Below, piece by piece: positions 1 to 9,921 of a stretch of DNA of 35,998 nt (the stretch's first letter is position 1; each line of letters starts with the position of its first letter). The stretch lies in UHGV virus genome UHGV-0106827. One strand, given 5' to 3'. The notes under the pieces are model-generated. The model saw only the letters and a list, made by a program, of their open reading frames with translations, was not told the origin of the DNA and did no database searches. Origin of the DNA: a virus. The translations under genes and the position numbers were made by a program.

Positions 1-412
1 CCGAATTGGTCAACATGAAGTATGTGCTTGAACCATCGTTTCGGATAAAGAATCCGTAGTCACCCTGTACGATGCGGAAGCCATTTCCTGACTTGGAGAC
101 AATCTCACCATCAACCGTTAAACCGCCGGTAAGAGTTCCTCCAGTTATTGGCAATGCATCAATATCTTCAGGCGTGAGGTTAATGTCTTTTGAACCATCA
201 AACGAAACGGAATTAATCTTTCTCGCGGTTTTCAGCTTTGTAGCCGTTGAGGCATTGCCGGACAGCTCACCAGAAATGCCACCAACAACTGTTAGATCAC
301 CAGTTATTGTGCCGCCTGAACTTTCCAGTTTTTTAGCAACATCACTCTTAATAGAGTCGATTTCTTTTTTCAGATTAGTTATATCTGCTGGTATCGTTGT
401 CACTGTTGCCAT
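1..412 (-). CDS. Tail-fibre-like protein, N-terminal part (gene runs off the left edge)
   Basis: ATG at 410-412 with AAGGA 7 nt upstream; translation MATVTTIPADITNLKK...GNASTATKLKTARKINSVSFDGSKDINLT carries the fibre repeat motif also present in the 700-2196 ORF. Not in the ORF track because no stop falls in the window. Confidence 0.6.
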   Translation of the reverse strand, partial: MATVTTIPADITNLKKEIDSIKSDVAKKLESSGGTITGDLTVVGGISGELSGNASTATKLKTARKINSVSFDGSKDINLTPEDIDALPITGGTLTGGLTVDGEIVSKSGNGFRIVQGDYGFFIRNDGSSTYFMLTNS

Positions 413-421
413 ATTAATTCC

Positions 422-700
422 TTACGCCCATTCCCGCAGCGGTTGTTCTAATTGAACTTCAAAACAATCAAACATTTGTTGTTTCAAACTGTTGTTTAAA
501 ATACGAACATTAACGAAGAAGCCATCATTTTTAATCACTGTTGGTTCTTCGTTCTCGCCGTTAGATATTTCGGTATATGTAATACCTACAACATCAAGAA
601 GGATGTTGTTTTGCAGTTCTTCGTTATCGTGCCAGGATATACTCTCTAAAAAAGAGTCGTATTCTTCCCTGTCTCTGAATTTCAACGTAATATCTTTCAT
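422..700 (-). CDS. Hypothetical acidic 92-aa protein, translationally coupled to the upstream fibre segment (U'-like position; possible fibre chaperone)
   Basis: ATG at 698-700 overlaps the TAA of the upstream ORF (TAATG); its own stop lies inside the RBS of the next gene. No recognisable motif. Confidence 0.45.
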   Translation of the reverse strand: MKDITLKFRDREEYDSFLESISWHDNEELQNNILLDVVGITYTEISNGENEEPTVIKNDGFFVNVRILNNSLKQQMFDCFEVQLEQPLREWA

Positions 701-2196
701 TAAATAACCTCAGCCATTTGTTGGTCTGTTAATGCTTTATGCCATATTCTGAAATTCCTGATATGACCAAATAAATGACGTAACCCTGCTGTAGTCTGGC
801 CTCCAATACGGATGGTTGCAGAGTTCTGAATATAGGACCATGTAGTCTTTGTTTCGCTGGATATGCGCCCGTTACTTACTGAGCACGTAGACTGATCTGA
901 TTTTACACGCATCCCCATAACCATTTTTTCAAGCAATGCGTTTTCGTTTACCCGTCTGTTAGCTCCTCCAATATCGCAATAAGGAAATCCGTCGTAATCT
1001 GCTGAAGAACCGAAGCCAAGAATAATAGCCGCTCCGGTTTGATGACCGCCGGTATCAAAAACACGTGGCGCTGCATTTGGCGTTTTATACCAGTTCTTAT
1101 GTACCTCACAAAGAACCGTAAAAGGAAGATTATAAAGATTATTATTAATTGGAACTGTAACTATATCGCTTGCGCGGGTAGCCGCCGTCGTTCCTGAGAT
1201 AATAAAAGATGATGCACACGAACCATCCTCAACCTGAGGGGTGGACAGATAAATATAGTCTCCAGATACGGTTGCTCCGCCCTGCTTAGGAGAATACTGT
1301 ATCTGAGATCCTATTTTTAACTCATCATCAATTGCCTGGATTGTTGCCTCTGCAAAAATCCATCCGGTAGCTTCGTCCTTTCTGACTCTCGCTGTAATCC
1401 TTGAGGCCGCGCCACCTGTCATATTAATTTCAAGCGTTTGTGTATCAATATATGCATCACCAAGAAAAGTTGTTGCACTACCATCATATTTATCAAAGCG
1501 GATACGCAACCTTACCTGTCGTTCTGTTTTAAAACGACATGAGGTTGTCACGTACTTGTTATCGCCTGAAACATCAACTGACTTTGTAGCAGCAATTGAT
1601 GCCATATTAATGGCTGATGTTTGCCCAATCAGAGAATCGTTACAGACAAACTTTCCATAGGTAAAACCAAAACTATCCGTCCCGGTTTCGGGAACATCCA
1701 TATTTGACGATCGCCCCCAACTGGCAGGGTTTTCCGAATTGAGCATGTAGTTTGTTCGTTGTCCCTCAATAAGCAGGCCATCACGTTCAAATCGTGGCTC
1801 GTCAATGGCAGCCTCTGTCAGCACACCAGATTTATTTATATAGGTTGCTTTCGATGCGCGTTTAAACTTAACAACCTTGTCGCCAGGCATTGTTATTTCG
1901 TCGTCGCCAATAACAATCTTTTTATATGATGGAGAAAAGCCCGCAATCATATCCAGTGAATCATTAAACGGTATCCACACATCTGGCAGCGGTTGAATAA
2001 TCTTCCTGGCATCCTCCAGTGACAATGCTTCGACATCCGAGGCTGTTAAAGAAATATCTGCCGAACCGTCAAATGAAACGTTGTTAATCTTCCGCGCTGT
2101 TTTTAATTTTGTTGCGGTATCGGCATTCCCTGTCAGCGCCCCGGTGATCCCGCCGTTGAAAGTCTGGCGTGCACTCCATGTGTTAGCCGTGCTCAA
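700..2196 (-). CDS. Tail-fibre variable segment (Sv'-type cassette) of the Cin-invertible C segment
   Basis: Frame is open upstream of the TTG at 2194-2196 through the cix site to a stop at 2275-2277, so there is no independent start. Begins with the conserved fibre motif TANTWSARQTFNGG and ends with a jelly-roll/LamG-like tail (TIRIGGQTTAGLRHLFGHIRNFRIWHKALTDQQMAEV). Confidence 0.7.
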   Translation of the reverse strand: MSTANTWSARQTFNGGITGALTGNADTATKLKTARKINNVSFDGSADISLTASDVEALSLEDARKIIQPLPDVWIPFNDSLDMIAGFSPSYKKIVIGDDEITMPGDKVVKFKRASKATYINKSGVLTEAAIDEPRFERDGLLIEGQRTNYMLNSENPASWGRSSNMDVPETGTDSFGFTYGKFVCNDSLIGQTSAINMASIAATKSVDVSGDNKYVTTSCRFKTERQVRLRIRFDKYDGSATTFLGDAYIDTQTLEINMTGGAASRITARVRKDEATGWIFAEATIQAIDDELKIGSQIQYSPKQGGATVSGDYIYLSTPQVEDGSCASSFIISGTTAATRASDIVTVPINNNLYNLPFTVLCEVHKNWYKTPNAAPRVFDTGGHQTGAAIILGFGSSADYDGFPYCDIGGANRRVNENALLEKMVMGMRVKSDQSTCSVSNGRISSETKTTWSYIQNSATIRIGGQTTAGLRHLFGHIRNFRIWHKALTDQQMAEVI

Positions 2197-2226
2197 CAGG
2201 GGGATCTTTTCACCGCTGGTACCGAG

Positions 2227-2252
2227 TTCTCTTAAACCAAGGTTTAGGATTG
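2227..2252. other. Cin crossover site (cix), 26 bp with central AA
   Basis: TTCTCTTAAACCAAGGTTTAGGATTG closely matches the Hin/Gin/Cin crossover consensus (compare hixL TTCTTGAAAACCAAGGTTTTTGATAA); overlaps the cin stop codon. Confidence 0.75.
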
Positions 2253-2804
2253 AAATGATGACGCCGGAAACTTCTTATAAAGCGTGGAAACAGCCACATC
2301 ATAGATGATTGCAACCTGCTTACGGGGGATACCCTTCTCCAGCAATCGCCGCATTTGCTGCCATGTTTCTTCTTGGTATTTAGGCCGACGCCCACCTATA
2401 CGACCTTCTGCGCGAGCTACATCAAGTCCAGCGCGTGTACGTTCAACGATAAGCTCACGTTCCATTTCTGCCAGCGCACCCATTACGTGAAAGAAAAAGC
2501 GCCCCATTGGTGTACTGGTGTCGATGGAGTCAGTGAGACTCCGGAAGTTAATGCCTCTGTCACGCAGTTCTTCCACCAGCACAACTAAGTGACGCATGCT
2601 GCGCCCAAGACGATCTAACTTCCATACGACCAGGGTGTCACCTCTGGAAAGCATACGGAGAACCTTTTTTAACCCAGGGCGTTCAGCCTTTTTGCCGCTC
2701 GCCTTGTCCTCAAAAATTAGCTCACATCCTGCGCTTTCAAGGGCATTTCGTTGCAAAGCAGTGTTTTGTTCATTTGTTGATACGCGTACATAGCCTATTA
2801 GCAT
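2244..2804 (-). CDS. cin: Cin serine DNA invertase
   Basis: 186 aa; MLIGYVRVSTNEQ... N-terminal serine-recombinase catalytic region and C-terminal HTH ending STLYKKFPASSFQS, typical of the Hin/Gin/Cin family. Confidence 0.9.
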   Translation of the reverse strand: MLIGYVRVSTNEQNTALQRNALESAGCELIFEDKASGKKAERPGLKKVLRMLSRGDTLVVWKLDRLGRSMRHLVVLVEELRDRGINFRSLTDSIDTSTPMGRFFFHVMGALAEMERELIVERTRAGLDVARAEGRIGGRRPKYQEETWQQMRRLLEKGIPRKQVAIIYDVAVSTLYKKFPASSFQS

Positions 2805-3232: not shown

Positions 3233-3244
3233 AAGTTACTTTGC
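3233..3244 (+). promoter_or_regulatory. Candidate late-promoter box (AAGTTACTTTGC) upstream of lydA and the dar operon
   Basis: Shares a motif with sites upstream of lyz, prt and pacA; sits 36 nt before the lydA GTG. Assignment as an Lpa-dependent element is inference. Confidence 0.35.
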
Positions 3245-3279
3245 ATACCATTACCTCCTGACAACGTAGGAGGGAACTT

Positions 3280-4639: not shown

Positions 4640-6559
4640 ATGGAACAGTTCAATATCAATAAAGGGGTGACGATTAAGCCGGGGCTTGACGTGCTTCCCC
4701 CGCCGGTGACTGATGATGAATATCGCGCATTAATGGCTGGTGAGGACCGCTATCTGATGACGGAATCCAACACCCTGGAGGAAATCGAGGCAACGTTCTT
4801 CTATGACACGCCGATCCACTGGTGTGCTACGGATTTATTGGAGGCGATTAGTTCTACTCGTTTGCAGTTACACCGGACCATGCAGGCATTTGTCCGGGCA
4901 TTGAACCAGAAGCTGAATGGTACCGGAATCTCTGCGGGGAGTGATAAAACGGGGGATGTGGCCCAGAGCGGCGCGCGCGCGATCGGCGGCGCTGAAATTG
5001 GCCGGGCACGTAACGTTAACGGGCTGCCAGTCCTGCCAGCCATTATTCCGCTCAGTGATGGTCAGACTATCAGCATTCTGTTTCATAGCCCGACAGCGGA
5101 AAACCGGATCACCAATAGCGATACGCTGGTTGCTTTCCAGTTCTTACTGAATAAAAAAGACGTTACTCACACCGTTGCTCCGATGAGTGGACGTGATATG
5201 ACGCTGGCGCAGGTCACCATGAAACTTGCCAACCTTGCAGAGAAAAACTCGGCAAAATTCCAGCGTGCGCAGAAGAAGAAAAAAGCCCTTGTTGATGAAA
5301 TAACCCAACTACAGGCTGACAGTGACCAGAAAGAGGATGCCATGAGCGACCTCGCGGATCAGGTGGCAGCGGTAGAAGGGCAGAAGGCAGATCTGGAGCA
5401 GAAAATTAACGCTGTTGCATCGGAAGCGGATTCTCTTTATGAAGAGAATGAGCGTTTGCAGACGGAGATTGATCAGCTCAATCGCACTGGTGGGCGCGAT
5501 ACCATTGCTCCAGCGGGGATGACTGGTGGGCACTCTCGCGCGCTGACGGATCGCCTTGCCAGTATCAAAAATCGTATGCATATGGAAGGGGAAGCGATGC
5601 TCAGTAATGGTGCATCAATGAAGCAATTCATTGGGGATGGCGAAGGGTATATCCAGTTAACCGATCCGGATGGCAGCGTATACATGATCAAGGCTAAATC
5701 CATACAGGGTGTGGACATGGCAGATGCGATCGGCAAGCTGTTTAAAGCCTATAAAGCGGGTAATGTATCGGAATATCTGGTCCAACCAGAAGAACATAAA
5801 CCGGAAAACGTCGAACCTGAACCAGCGGAGGATACCGGTAGCTCTTCGCCTGAACCAGAAGTCTCTGTAGGTGCATATCGATATGCCCTGCAAATGCGTC
5901 CGGCGGCCCCTGGCGCAATACCTGAAGGTAACAAAGCAATTCTGCCGCGCCCTGATGAAGGTGACCCGTATTATGAATATGCACGCTACGGCATTGCTAC
6001 TTTCGATACCCCGCTTTCTGATCAGCAAATGAGTGAGTACGACCTGAAGTTATTGCCTCGCGAGGATTCTTTCGACTTCCTGGCGAAGACACTTACTAAT
6101 GGTCCGTTTGGCAAATATGCACAAAAAGCTCTGGAGCTGGCCACCAGCTCACCAGACGAGTTCCGCGTAATGCTGAAAACTCAGTTTCAAAAAACTTTCC
6201 CCAATATTGCGTTTCCTGGGGGCGCTGGCACCGAGAAAATGGTGCAGAGCATGATCAATGCATTGCAGGCCGAAGTCGGTGAGATTACTCAGCCAGAACC
6301 GGCCCCGGCACAGCCTGATGAAACGGTTAGCGAAGCAGATGCAGAGGCTAATAAAGCCATTGAATATCTCAATAACGTGATGGATATACAAAGCACTGAC
6401 ATGGCGGAGATCCGTAACGCCCGGGGCAATGTCCGGGAAGCGATTGCAGCCCTTCAGGCTGCCGGACGTTTTGAGGAAAACGAAGAGCTGGTTAACGGCG
6501 CAGCTCGCCACCTGGCTGATCTGTTGGTAGCAATCCAGAAAGCGGGGGTAGCGGCATGA
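4640..6559 (+). CDS. darA: DarA antirestriction protein (virion internal protein)
   Basis: 639 aa, matching P1 DarA size and operon position; coiled-coil central region. Confidence 0.75.
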   Translation: MEQFNINKGVTIKPGLDVLPPPVTDDEYRALMAGEDRYLMTESNTLEEIEATFFYDTPIHWCATDLLEAISSTRLQLHRTMQAFVRALNQKLNGTGISAGSDKTGDVAQSGARAIGGAEIGRARNVNGLPVLPAIIPLSDGQTISILFHSPTAENRITNSDTLVAFQFLLNKKDVTHTVAPMSGRDMTLAQVTMKLANLAEKNSAKFQRAQKKKKALVDEITQLQADSDQKEDAMSDLADQVAAVEGQKADLEQKINAVASEADSLYEENERLQTEIDQLNRTGGRDTIAPAGMTGGHSRALTDRLASIKNRMHMEGEAMLSNGASMKQFIGDGEGYIQLTDPDGSVYMIKAKSIQGVDMADAIGKLFKAYKAGNVSEYLVQPEEHKPENVEPEPAEDTGSSSPEPEVSVGAYRYALQMRPAAPGAIPEGNKAILPRPDEGDPYYEYARYGIATFDTPLSDQQMSEYDLKLLPREDSFDFLAKTLTNGPFGKYAQKALELATSSPDEFRVMLKTQFQKTFPNIAFPGGAGTEKMVQSMINALQAEVGEITQPEPAPAQPDETVSEADAEANKAIEYLNNVMDIQSTDMAEIRNARGNVREAIAALQAAGRFEENEELVNGAARHLADLLVAIQKAGVAA

Positions 6560-6933: not shown

Positions 6934-9921
6934 ATGAGCTTAAGCGATCAGGTGGTAATGGCCACCAGCATAGAAACGCTGATCGAGCTGCTAAAGAACC
7001 TGCCCGATTATGGGCGGGTTTCGTATGTGGTGACAGCGAAGGGAGACGAGGTAAAAACAGCGTTTGATATCGTCGATGCCTCAGTTCTTTTGGTATCCAA
7101 TACTCTGGATGGGAAAATTAATCCAGACTATCCCCAGGAACTTCAGCCGCGCGACCGGACCCGCGCATCCAGCCTTCTTCAGGTCAACCAGATATCCAAG
7201 GATTTGCGTCCTGCCCAGCTTACCGATTCCGGTTTATCCAGCCATGGCGCGCCAATAATTGGTGAGGACAATGCCGTTGAGTCAGGTAATGGGCGGACCA
7301 TGGGGATCATTAAAGCCTATCAGGACGGTAATGCGGATCGGTATCGGGAGTACCTGATTGAACATGCGACCGAATTCGGCATACGGCCTGAAAAGGTTGA
7401 ATCAATGACGGCTCCGGTACTGGTGCGCCGCCGGTTAACGAAGGTTGACCGTGTTCAGTTTGCCAAGGACTCAAATATTTCTGATCTCCAGGAAATGGCA
7501 GCCAGTGAAAAGGCTTTTGTTGATGCCGACAGCATAACACCGGCGATGATGGCGTTGTTTAACCCGTCAGAAAGTGGAGATCTGCTTAGCCGCAGTAATG
7601 ACGCGTTTATTCGCGGATTCATGACGCAAGTTGGTGCCACACAGGCTGCTGGCCTTGTAACGGAAGATGGGCGACCAACACGGCAACTTGTAGACCGTAT
7701 ACAAAACGCGATCTTTGCCAAGGCATATAAGGATGCGCGCCTGGTAAGGATGGTTGCAGAAGAACCTGATCCGGATATGCGTAATGTTCTGACGGCGCTT
7801 AATGCGGCAGCCAATGATTTTGTCCAGATGCAGGCTTTATCAGGAGAAGCGCACAAGCAGGCTGTGACAACTATTGTTGATGGCATTGAGACAGCGGATA
7901 GCCTCGATAAAAAGGCGCTGGCGGCATTGAAAGATGCGGTAGACCTGGTAAGGCAATCGAAGGAGTCAGGCCAGCATATTACCGATGTTATTGCTCAGGG
8001 GGATATGTTCAGCGAAACGGCCTCGGAAGTGAAAGCACTCGCGTTTTTCATCGTCGCGAATAACCGTAGTGCGAAGCGTATGGCCACCGCCTTTAAATTG
8101 ATGGCTCAACGTATCAATGATGAGTTACAGCACCAGGGCCAGGCGCTCGGGGATATGTTTGGCGGCGGCGATGTGTCGTTACAGGATATCCTTCGCCAGG
8201 TATCTCAGGAACTGGAAAACGAAGGTATGCAAGGGATATCCGGCGGTCTTTTCGAGTCCGTTTCCGGCGGTAGTTACAACGGTGTTGCTCCATATACCAG
8301 TTTGCTATTACATCGGGCATCCGGCATCAAAGACATTATTCATCTGATCAGGCTGCTTTCCCGTACAGATCCCCAGGATGAGCAGCTTGTACAAGTGCTT
8401 GCGCATTTTGTCCGAATGCCTGTTGCCGACGTGAAAAAATGGTGCCGATTATTCGGTATCAGCAATTCGTTACTTCGCGGCTTGTTAAATCACGCATCCT
8501 CCCTTGGGCGCGACGGCTTTGATGAGATAGCGCAGGCGATACAAAACGGAGATATGCCACCAGCTATTGACTGGTTTTCCATTCGCCCAACTAGGGTGAA
8601 AGCATTCCTTAGTGCGGCGCAATCAGCATCACCATTGGCAGAAATGGTTCAGAGGTTATCGCTCATATTCACAGACCATACCGCGTTGGGGGATCTGACT
8701 CTGGACGAGATGAAAGAAGCCTCCATTCAGTGGGCCGATCAACAAAATGAGGTTAACTCAGACTTCTTGCCAGCATTCAGGAAGGCCGTTAGTAAAGCGG
8801 ATGATGCCCGTGGAATTCTGAAGGCATTTAAGGCATTGCAAAGTCGTGTTAATAAACATGTCGGTGATATCGATGCGGTAACGGCGGAAGGCCGGGATAT
8901 CCTTAAAGAGCACGGCATAACGCCAGAGTTTATTGATGAGATCAGGACTGATATGCAGCGTGAGGTCGTATCGTCCCTGCAAATCGTAGCCAGAGCGTTG
9001 GCGGATGCTAATCCGAAGAGTGCGGCCATTGTTAACCGTGTTATTGGTGATATTGAAGCATCGGAGGGCATGGGGGCGCTGAAACTCTTCCTTTCGCGAG
9101 CGTTTAATCCTAACGGCAATATTCTTCCTGGCATTATTGGTGAGGCTAAAAGGTATGTCAGTGAAGAAGAACTTGAGCAGCTTGACCAGCTACTCAAACG
9201 ATTTTCATATATCCCGCAGAAACGCTGGCAAATGAATCAGCGAAGTATGGATTCGGTCTACGAGAAAGTGTTATCTGCCATGAACAGTGCGATCGCCAAC
9301 TCATCCGTATCAGAAGAAAAAGCTCTTGAGTGGGCCGACTCTTTTATCACGGAAGAAGTGGAAGAAGCCCGCGCTGGACAGAATGGTGGAATAGACTTGC
9401 GCAAGGAACTTTCTGATATTTACCGTCTGACAGGCGGGAAAATATCAACCTTATCAAGGGTAATTCACCACAAGGGTAGGGCGTATGCAAATCTTAATGG
9501 TGTTGTTGCTGTCGATTTGCACGATGAAAATGCAAATGCACTGTGGCACGAGCTGGGTCATCATCTTGAGTACAGTAACCCGGGTTTGTTAGAGAAAGCC
9601 AGGTCATTCCTGAAGGCCAATGTTGAAGGGGATAAGCCATCTTTCGTTAATATCGGTGGGCGTGGCAAGCCTGAATGGTGCTTCAGATCTCGATTGAGTG
9701 ATATTTATATGGCGAAGGTATACCCGCCTGTCTCAGTGAGTAATTCTGGTAAATTTCGACACAAATCTCCGACAATTTCCAAAACGTCAGCAACGGAAGT
9801 GTTCTCTATGGCTCTTCAGTTGTATCATGACAAAGAGGCCGCTGCCGCATCACTGATGAATGGTGACGGATTGCTGGAACTGTTATTAGGTGTGGCAAAG
9901 GAGCTAAATAATGCAGATTAA
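6934..9921 (+). CDS. ddrB: DdrB (dar operon, large protein)
   Basis: 995 aa ORF following ddrA; size and position consistent with P1 DdrB. Confidence 0.65.
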   Translation: MSLSDQVVMATSIETLIELLKNLPDYGRVSYVVTAKGDEVKTAFDIVDASVLLVSNTLDGKINPDYPQELQPRDRTRASSLLQVNQISKDLRPAQLTDSGLSSHGAPIIGEDNAVESGNGRTMGIIKAYQDGNADRYREYLIEHATEFGIRPEKVESMTAPVLVRRRLTKVDRVQFAKDSNISDLQEMAASEKAFVDADSITPAMMALFNPSESGDLLSRSNDAFIRGFMTQVGATQAAGLVTEDGRPTRQLVDRIQNAIFAKAYKDARLVRMVAEEPDPDMRNVLTALNAAANDFVQMQALSGEAHKQAVTTIVDGIETADSLDKKALAALKDAVDLVRQSKESGQHITDVIAQGDMFSETASEVKALAFFIVANNRSAKRMATAFKLMAQRINDELQHQGQALGDMFGGGDVSLQDILRQVSQELENEGMQGISGGLFESVSGGSYNGVAPYTSLLLHRASGIKDIIHLIRLLSRTDPQDEQLVQVLAHFVRMPVADVKKWCRLFGISNSLLRGLLNHASSLGRDGFDEIAQAIQNGDMPPAIDWFSIRPTRVKAFLSAAQSASPLAEMVQRLSLIFTDHTALGDLTLDEMKEASIQWADQQNEVNSDFLPAFRKAVSKADDARGILKAFKALQSRVNKHVGDIDAVTAEGRDILKEHGITPEFIDEIRTDMQREVVSSLQIVARALADANPKSAAIVNRVIGDIEASEGMGALKLFLSRAFNPNGNILPGIIGEAKRYVSEEELEQLDQLLKRFSYIPQKRWQMNQRSMDSVYEKVLSAMNSAIANSSVSEEKALEWADSFITEEVEEARAGQNGGIDLRKELSDIYRLTGGKISTLSRVIHHKGRAYANLNGVVAVDLHDENANALWHELGHHLEYSNPGLLEKARSFLKANVEGDKPSFVNIGGRGKPEWCFRSRLSDIYMAKVYPPVSVSNSGKFRHKSPTISKTSATEVFSMALQLYHDKEAAAASLMNGDGLLELLLGVAKELNNAD

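Follow-up and report, generated by a model that had tools for sequence, protein, structure and literature searches.

A P1-type Cin inversion switch whose cin-proximal arm probably carries a four-gene composite-fibre cassette

What does an invertible tail-fibre segment hold when its invertase gene and crossover site are those of phage P1 but the fibre genes beside them are not? The question is raised by the left end of UHGV virus genome UHGV-0106827, a stretch of 35,998 nucleotides that we refer to as the window and that represents a P1-like phage-plasmid, with ~98% identity to P1-type phages over positions 2900-27000. Among transducing phage-plasmids P1 and its relatives are major ones, they also carry resistance genes, and it is the C segment that determines their host range. 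We propose that the window holds a P1-type Cin switch whose cin-proximal arm probably carries a composite-fibre cassette of four genes (Sv', orf92, fibre2 and a U'-type Tfa gene) instead of the Sv'-U' pair; the architecture and its control by Cin are held with high confidence. Surveys of P1-like plasmids (PMC6906374 among them) list the variable region as cin-Sv'-U'-U-S and omit this layout, and the full text of the searchable literature yielded no description of such a four-gene arm.

The inversion switch itself looks intact, with Cin, enhancer and cix all conserved. The serine DNA invertase gene cin occupies 2244-2804 on the minus strand and encodes a product identical to P1 Cin in 185 of 186 residues, so that an invertase gene adjoins the segment as in switches of the Din family (Cin/Gin/Pin). 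The DNA of positions 2096-2900 is 97.9% identical to P1, and the first 100 nt of cin, which cover the annotated P1 enhancer, agree with P1 at 97 positions, by which measure the Fis-dependent recombinational enhancer in the 5' part of the gene appears to be kept. The cin-proximal crossover site (cixL in P1 nomenclature) lies at 2227-2252 and consists of two 12-bp half-sites around a central AA (2239-2240); it reads TTCTCTTAAACC-AA-GGTTTAGGATTG, agrees with P1 cixL at all of the 24 nt searched, and is the sole match within the window, where 0 are expected by chance. On the other side of cin, the P1 late promoter LPdar is unchanged at 3233-3251 between lydC and lydA (AAGTTACTTTGCATACCAT), which confirms a P1-type late transcription signal beside the segment. 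Scans of the whole window for tRNA genes and Rfam families gave no matches.

What adjoins the switch is less familiar. Sv', the start-less C-terminal part of a tail fibre S', extends over 700-2274 on the minus strand in a frame that runs from a stop at 2275-2277 across cix to a stop at 700-702 and has neither an ATG nor a ribosome-binding site (RBS) of its own. An earlier reading of the window made from the sequence only, without database searches (hereafter the sequence-only reading), had described this cassette as open in frame through cix, and it is: the frame reads ...LGLRELGTSGEKIPLLSTANTW..., and both frame and residues match the S protein of a relative. Sv' is built from a P1-like stretch (2096-2250), a fibre-repeat motif (GNADTATKLKTARKINNVSFDGS) and a foreign distal domain of ~430 amino acids (aa). 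Homology to P1 stops at 2096, ~130 nt inside cix and within the conserved fibre-repeat motif GNADTATKLKTAR..., and everything further left on the cassette is foreign to P1, in agreement with the suggestion that a different host-range cassette set is present. The protein matches phrog_1419 (E 4.5e-235) and has >2500 homologues, mainly side tail fibres of E. coli prophages with lambda-type N-termini.

The distal part of Sv' contains a beta-sandwich of the head-spike-fibre or carbohydrate-binding-module (CBM)-like kind at 1171-1773 on the minus strand (aa 142-342), recognised by NCBIfam NF048003 GTA_spike_fiber with 55 bits against a cut-off of 36. The sequence furthermore matches the RcGTA head spike fibre (PDB 6tb9, E 3.6e-6), and Foldseek relates the beta-sandwich of the AF2 (AlphaFold2) model to fibre domains of phages Pa193/E217 and to CBM4/6/16. 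The LamG/jelly-roll-like ending proposed from the sequence thus holds as far as this beta-sandwich is concerned, but its assignment to the extreme C-terminus is tentative, since Pfam Laminin_G_3 matches aa 446-493 below threshold (E 0.0025) and the AF2 model is confident for the beta-sandwich alone. The ~430-aa distal domain as a whole ends in the conserved sequence HLFGHxRNxRIWHK.

Two further open reading frames (ORFs) follow on the same strand, both of which the sequence-only reading had picked out correctly. The first, orf92 (422-700, minus strand, 92 aa), is coupled to Sv' by a TAATG stop/start overlap and has a GAGG before its ATG. The second, fibre2, has an RBS of its own (AAGGA, 419-423) 6 nt from its ATG (412-410) and starts 9 nt after the orf92 stop; its 5' part (137 codons, 412-1, minus strand) is cut at the left edge of the window. 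Along its full length the orf92 product matches phrog_1361 (E 1.7e-35), a family of unknown function, while Pfam and NCBIfam hold no family for it and a PDB sequence search returned nothing better than E > 1. Its AF2 model has a pLDDT (predicted local distance difference test score) of 85.5 but yielded no informative fold relative, the BFVD matches being uncharacterised phage proteins only. Homologues occur in 196 phage records from T5-like, T1-like, Queuovirinae, Dhillonvirus and lambdoid phages, no P1-like phage being among them, and rV5-like phages gave partial matches only.

The fibre2 protein begins with the peptide MATVTTIPADITNLK, which fits the motif M.T.T.IP.DI..LK, and continues with the fibre-repeat motif and a shaft of the Gp34_trimer type. 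In relatives the full-length protein measures 326-365 aa (Pfam Gp34_trimer, E 3.8e-31); over residues 29-326 its homology is confined to the variable (Sv) part of S on the other arm, with blocks at 81% identity, its residues 1-28 are unique, and no similarity to Sc, the part that attaches to the baseplate, was found in it. The fibre-repeat motif therefore occurs twice on the cin-proximal arm, at the start of Sv' and again behind the N-terminal peptide of fibre2, and from this doubling it looks as if the head-spike domain, orf92 and the N-terminal peptide had been inserted together into a once-continuous Sv'.

The remainder of the segment can be read from near-identical plasmids, namely the Salmonella plasmid pCFSAN058545_02 (98.4% identical over 1-2900) and the E. 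coli plasmid p2022H047-2 (99.3%), both in the orientation of the window. Their order is Sv-U> <Tfa-fibre2-orf92-Sv', followed by cix and cin, with R, S (Sc + Sv) and U (171-181 aa) on one strand and Tfa, fibre2, orf92 and Sv' on the other; the far arm is accordingly Sv-U and the cin-proximal arm comprises the four genes Sv', orf92, fibre2 and U'-type Tfa. The left gene of the window is not the standard U/Sv partner, which in these relatives lies further left and on the other strand. Directly after fibre2, just beyond the window, they encode a Caudo_TAP protein (Tfa, 171-185 aa). The sequence-only reading was right that the ORF next to the cassette has just 92 codons where a U-type assembly gene was expected, but the U-type gene is not missing: it stands two genes further on than supposed, and the candidate explanation that orf92 replaces U' is ruled out by a U'-type Tfa behind fibre2 in all complete relatives examined. 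The second cix and the constant part, which that reading had proposed to seek further left, are likewise present in the plasmids, where just one more cix is found, inverted and 6.07 kb away, delimiting a segment of ~6.1 kb; the second site of the window's own element is presumed from these relatives.

Compared with the P1 C segment, whose relatives are G of Mu (gin) and P of e14 (pin), the locus shares a nearly identical Cin, an identical cix and a conserved enhancer, an Sc outside the segment, start-less alternative C-terminal cassettes in opposite orientation inside it, one Caudo_TAP assembly gene per arm, and the neighbours lydC-lydA-darA. It differs in that P1 has two genes per arm (Sv'-U' and U-Sv) where the cin-proximal arm here has four, in that the segment measures 4256 bp in P1 and ~6.1 kb here, in that the inverted repeats at the segment ends are here only ~200 nt, and in that Sv' here ends in a head-spike/galectin-like domain without an adjacent Tfa and is followed by the extra 92-aa and second fibre genes. 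A canonical arm, in which a single U/Tfa gene comes straight after a single variable fibre part, is thus not what is found next to cin, and this departure concerns the layout and not the switch mechanism.

That the Sv' cassette inverts is indicated indirectly by the fact that natural isolates carry both orientations. Sv' is adjacent to cin in the window, NZ_CP077708, AP029607, AP045735 and CP195366, and is joined to Sc in KU980950, CP098912, AP027414, CP124376 and CP123334; in KU980950 (plasmid U2501) the Sc-Sv' fusion is an intact S protein of 966 aa. When isolates of opposite orientation are aligned at the junction, they share sequence up to ...AAACCAAGGT and then pass into either the cin-side or the Sc-side flank, so that the junctions switch exactly at the cix core as predicted for recombination there. 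Only two arrangements are seen among the ten natural isolates examined. At least nine P1-like plasmids have all four ORFs intact, with identities of 91-99.9%. The cassette is rare, with 6 P1-like plasmids among 603 matching PLSDB records and 7 among complete RefSeq E. coli genomes, some records being shared with the PLSDB set. In NZ_AP045735 an IS2 insertion lies inside the matched region and may inactivate the module.

Next to near-identical Sv' and orf92, two alleles of the fibre2 end and its Tfa occur in these plasmids, one of 326 aa + 171 aa (locus L001, 7905-9412) and one of 365 aa + 181-185 aa (L002, 1281-2942; L205, 6751-8412), which implies that the distal tip has itself been exchanged within the lineage. 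The first 137 fibre2 residues are almost identical between the alleles, and the window ends before its own allele can be told.

Where such a cassette might come from, and what holds its parts together, is best seen outside the P1-like plasmids. A proximal fibre with the head-spike/galectin-like end, a ~92-aa protein and a distal fibre with the conserved N-terminal peptide form one module with the same gene order in the lambdoid phage Tritos, the Nonagvirus ESCO3, a 48-kb P2-tailed phage-plasmid family and the T5-like phage IrisVonRoten. Its backgrounds comprise T5-like, T1-like, lambdoid, Queuovirinae, P2-tailed and P1-like elements, it sits in at least six unrelated tail types, and Sv'-orf92-fibre2 is a horizontally mobile module that is widespread in coliphages. 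Loci were gathered in two independent ways, through orf92 (83 loci) and through a DNA pattern for M.T.T.IP.DI..LK. In the orf92-fetched loci all assessable upstream fibres end in the same domain, with 37-100% identity over ~420 aa and with the conserved C-terminus mentioned above, and a distal fibre follows orf92 in 37 of the 83; in the motif-fetched loci, an orf92 homologue preceded by that fibre end stands immediately upstream of each of the 116 assessable fibres. Among 121 non-redundant modules orf92 directly follows a fibre with the same end domain in every case, and its sequence class predicts the downstream gene one-to-one. Within one orf92 class the bulk of the upstream domain varies from 31 to 100% identity, and in Tritos this domain is 94% identical to that of Sv' where orf92 is only 46% identical.

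The best described relative is IrisVonRoten (Bas32, Tequintavirus), in which Gp22-Gp23-Gp24 are the same three genes in the same order. The C-terminus of Gp22 is 65% identical to Sv' aa 67-498 (437 aa aligned), Gp23 is an orf92 homologue (55% identical), and Gp24, which bears the same motif at its N-terminus (MVTKTVIPTDITKLK), begins 9 nt downstream of Gp23. An AlphaFold-Multimer model of its lateral fibre has the T-shaped distal Gp24 attached to the proximal Gp22 (Humolli et al. 2025, PMC11990801), the protruding 'galectin-like' C-terminal domain of Gp22 has been proposed as a possible extra receptor-binding domain, and homologous modules in other phages have been tied to O-antigen recognition (both PMC11990801). 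IrisVonRoten is however a virulent siphovirus with constitutive expression, no inversion and a proximal N-terminus of the T5 type, and its T-shaped distal fibre has 574 aa and an intramolecular chaperone where the present one has a Mu/P1-type tip and a separate Tfa. The branched, L-shaped LtfA/LtfB fibres of DT57C and DT571/2 follow the same principle, in that the second fibre reaches the virion only through the first and adds a second receptor specificity (PMC4728585, PMC10713586). They differ in that both Ltf proteins have C-terminal intramolecular chaperones. Homology to the DT57C proteins was considered and is ruled out: a BLASTP comparison of Sv' with LtfA yields just E 0.64, the fibre2 motif is missing from the LtfB N-terminus (MSRPLMPKSG...), and no small ORF lies between the ltfA and ltfB genes.

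We envisage that in the orientation of the window the cassette would be silent, because Sv' is start-less and no late promoter was found for it: the P1 late-promoter motif is absent from 1-2300, whereas LPdar was readily recovered, and matches resembling sigma-70 promoters or terminators, taken as possible signals for orf92 and fibre2, are no commoner than in shuffled sequence. Inversion by Cin at cix would fuse Sv' in frame to Sc, and the late promoter LPs upstream of R-S would then serve Sc::Sv', orf92, fibre2 and Tfa as one operon. The Sc::Sv' trimer would form a baseplate-attached proximal fibre ending in a lectin-like domain; the orf92 product would act on or at this C-terminal end as an assembly factor or joint; and fibre2, folded with the help of Tfa, would dock onto that end by its conserved N-terminus of ~15-28 aa, so that the finished fibre would be composite and offer two potential receptor-binding modules. 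The opposite orientation would yield an ordinary one-protein fibre from Sv and U, and the switch would thereby alter fibre architecture as well as tip specificity. The physical docking of fibre2 on the proximal fibre we favour with moderate confidence, and as to orf92 we infer from its gene linkage that it is an accessory protein of the proximal-fibre tip, either a chaperone or a joint.

Several observations weigh against this account of the locus. As the window stops inside fibre2, our view of Tfa, the far arm and the second cix comes from relatives alone. Since cin lies upstream on the same strand, some read-through of orf92 and fibre2 may take place when the cassette is 'off'. The AF2 model of the distal part of Sv' is poor (mean pLDDT 48.9), the beta-sandwich alone being confident. 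The idea of docking draws on gene linkage and on the published model of a 65%-identical homologue, and many of the loci counted are closely related E. coli prophages, so that the counts overstate the number of independent observations. Finally, 43 of the 83 orf92-fetched loci, many of them lambdoid prophages, lack a second fibre, and the primary role of orf92 may hence be to chaperone the proximal tip. Taken with the 116 motif-bearing fibres, all of which sit behind the pair, these loci point to a one-way dependence in which the distal fibre would need the upstream pair while the pair would not need the distal fibre.

The same frequent absence of a second fibre also lends some credit to the notion that two independent fibres are encoded, orf92 being the chaperone of the head-spike-type tip with which it is always found and fibre2, which has its own RBS, ATG and Tfa, attaching to the virion by itself. 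We nonetheless consider this unlikely, since fibre2 offers no Sc-like or other recognisable anchor besides its unique 28-aa N-terminus, and since the same N-terminal motif recurs in T5-like, T1-like, lambdoid, Queuovirinae, P2-tailed and P1-like particles, whose baseplates are unrelated, and, in every assessable case, directly behind orf92 and the same fibre end. A motif kept across unrelated baseplates, and always behind the pair, points to the module, not the baseplate, as the site of docking.

That the arrangement is instead a decaying scar of illegitimate recombination, with Sv' a pseudogene as RefSeq has it, appears very improbable. Such decay would fit the label 'incomplete; missing N-terminus' given by the PGAP pipeline, the IS2 in the region of one relative, and the degraded C segments published for some P1-like plasmids (PMC6906374), but it is in poor agreement with the conservation of four intact ORFs in at least nine such plasmids, with the intact fused S protein of U2501 and the preserved translational coupling, and with the integrity of cin, enhancer and cix, and a pseudogene flag is in any case what one would expect for a start-less invertible cassette.

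A Min-like shufflon, in which extra crossover sites would permute several fibre 3' cassettes as in p15B, is the least probable of all, since the three fibre-type coding segments of the one invertible region and a weak cix-like sequence at 23-48, mirrored within a 260-nt inverted repeat in a relative, are set against an AAACC-NN-GGTTT core that occurs at two sites only in the relative's whole 6.1-kb segment and at one in the window, a weak site that agrees with the consensus at just 14 of 20 positions, matches poorly in its left half and has AT at its core where cix has AA, ~1.9 matches scoring >=13 expected by chance per 8.4 kb, a fibre2 that, unlike the 3' cassettes of a shufflon, has an RBS and a start codon to itself, and only two arrangements among the ten isolates. 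The multi-cassette arrangement suggested by the sequence-only reading is therefore not borne out: exact, 3-mismatch and looser consensus searches for further cix sites returned no credible one, the weak sequence being the one look-alike and at chance level. Min in p15B, another plasmid related to P1, likewise has a Din-family invertase that acts at the 3' ends of tail-fibre genes, but it works with six crossover sites and a nested set of several invertible segments, against the single segment with two sites found here. The weak sequence itself (TGTGCTTGAACC-AT-CGTTTCGGATAA) lies inside fibre2, at 9023-9048 in L001 with a mirror copy at 6523-6548 in the Sv gene, and the inverted repeat around that copy is 83% complementary. 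Quasi-sites of Cin are known, and inversion at the 23-48 site would swap the distal tips together with their Tfa genes.

Returning to the composite fibre, a bolder version of the proposal, which we regard as tentative and rather doubtful, is that orf92 is a structural joint and no folding chaperone, and that with the last ~40 conserved residues of the proximal fibre it makes a universal socket for the N-terminal peptides of interchangeable distal fibres. Such a plug and socket would serve siphovirus and myovirus tails alike, and Cin would then toggle a whole second receptor-binding protein and so change the valency of the fibre.

Some further observations were made along the way. In NZ_CP103765 (the 48.9-kb plasmid pMB9880_3), which belongs to the ~48-kb family with P2-type tails and repA, Sv'-orf92-fibre2-Tfa is found at 96% identity, matching window 1-2243, and the fibre gene has a complete cix-like site (TTCTCTTAAACCAAGGTACTGGATAA) at about 8227-8252 followed by a P1 Sc-like flank. 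The 14-kb stretch of this plasmid that was examined contains no annotated invertase gene, and the site may be what is left, now fixed, of an invertible system, or else the target of an invertase acting in trans. In 43 orf92 loci the next ORF encodes an apparently membrane-spanning protein of 97 aa (MDISPLLHALCAVAAQILVG...), as at 6292-6585 in L039, where it is the last prophage gene before sitABCD-like transporter genes of the host; it may be a moron or exclusion gene. Records labelled Campylobacter phage C13/C14, and some labelled as Listeria phages, have fibre sequence typical of E. coli phages (~80% identical to Sv', together with orf92 homologues) and are probably mislabelled or contaminated.

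As for annotation, RefSeq/PGAP calls Sv' in NZ_AP029607 (L205, 8700-10001) a pseudogene, 'incomplete; missing N-terminus', Sv' in NZ_CP077708 carries no annotation in PLSDB, and P1's own Sv' is a miscellaneous feature in the P1 record and not a coding sequence. Such pseudogene and missing calls are a systematic annotation artefact of start-less invertible fibre cassettes, which annotation pipelines mislabel.

The components described here are all of known kinds, the module is common and a homologue of it has already been modelled, and the arrangement is already present in RefSeq records. What the locus adds is that an inversion switch of the P1 type can hold, beyond alternative tips of one fibre, an entire composite-fibre module taken over from lambdoid and T5-like phages. 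It provides a natural template for adding a second receptor-binding protein to P1-based delivery vectors, and it singles out orf92 and the conserved peptide at the fibre2 N-terminus as candidate 'connectors' for those who engineer fibres. If the proposal is true, one orientation of the segment may present two receptor-binding modules, and DNA inversion may turn a second receptor-binding protein on and off.

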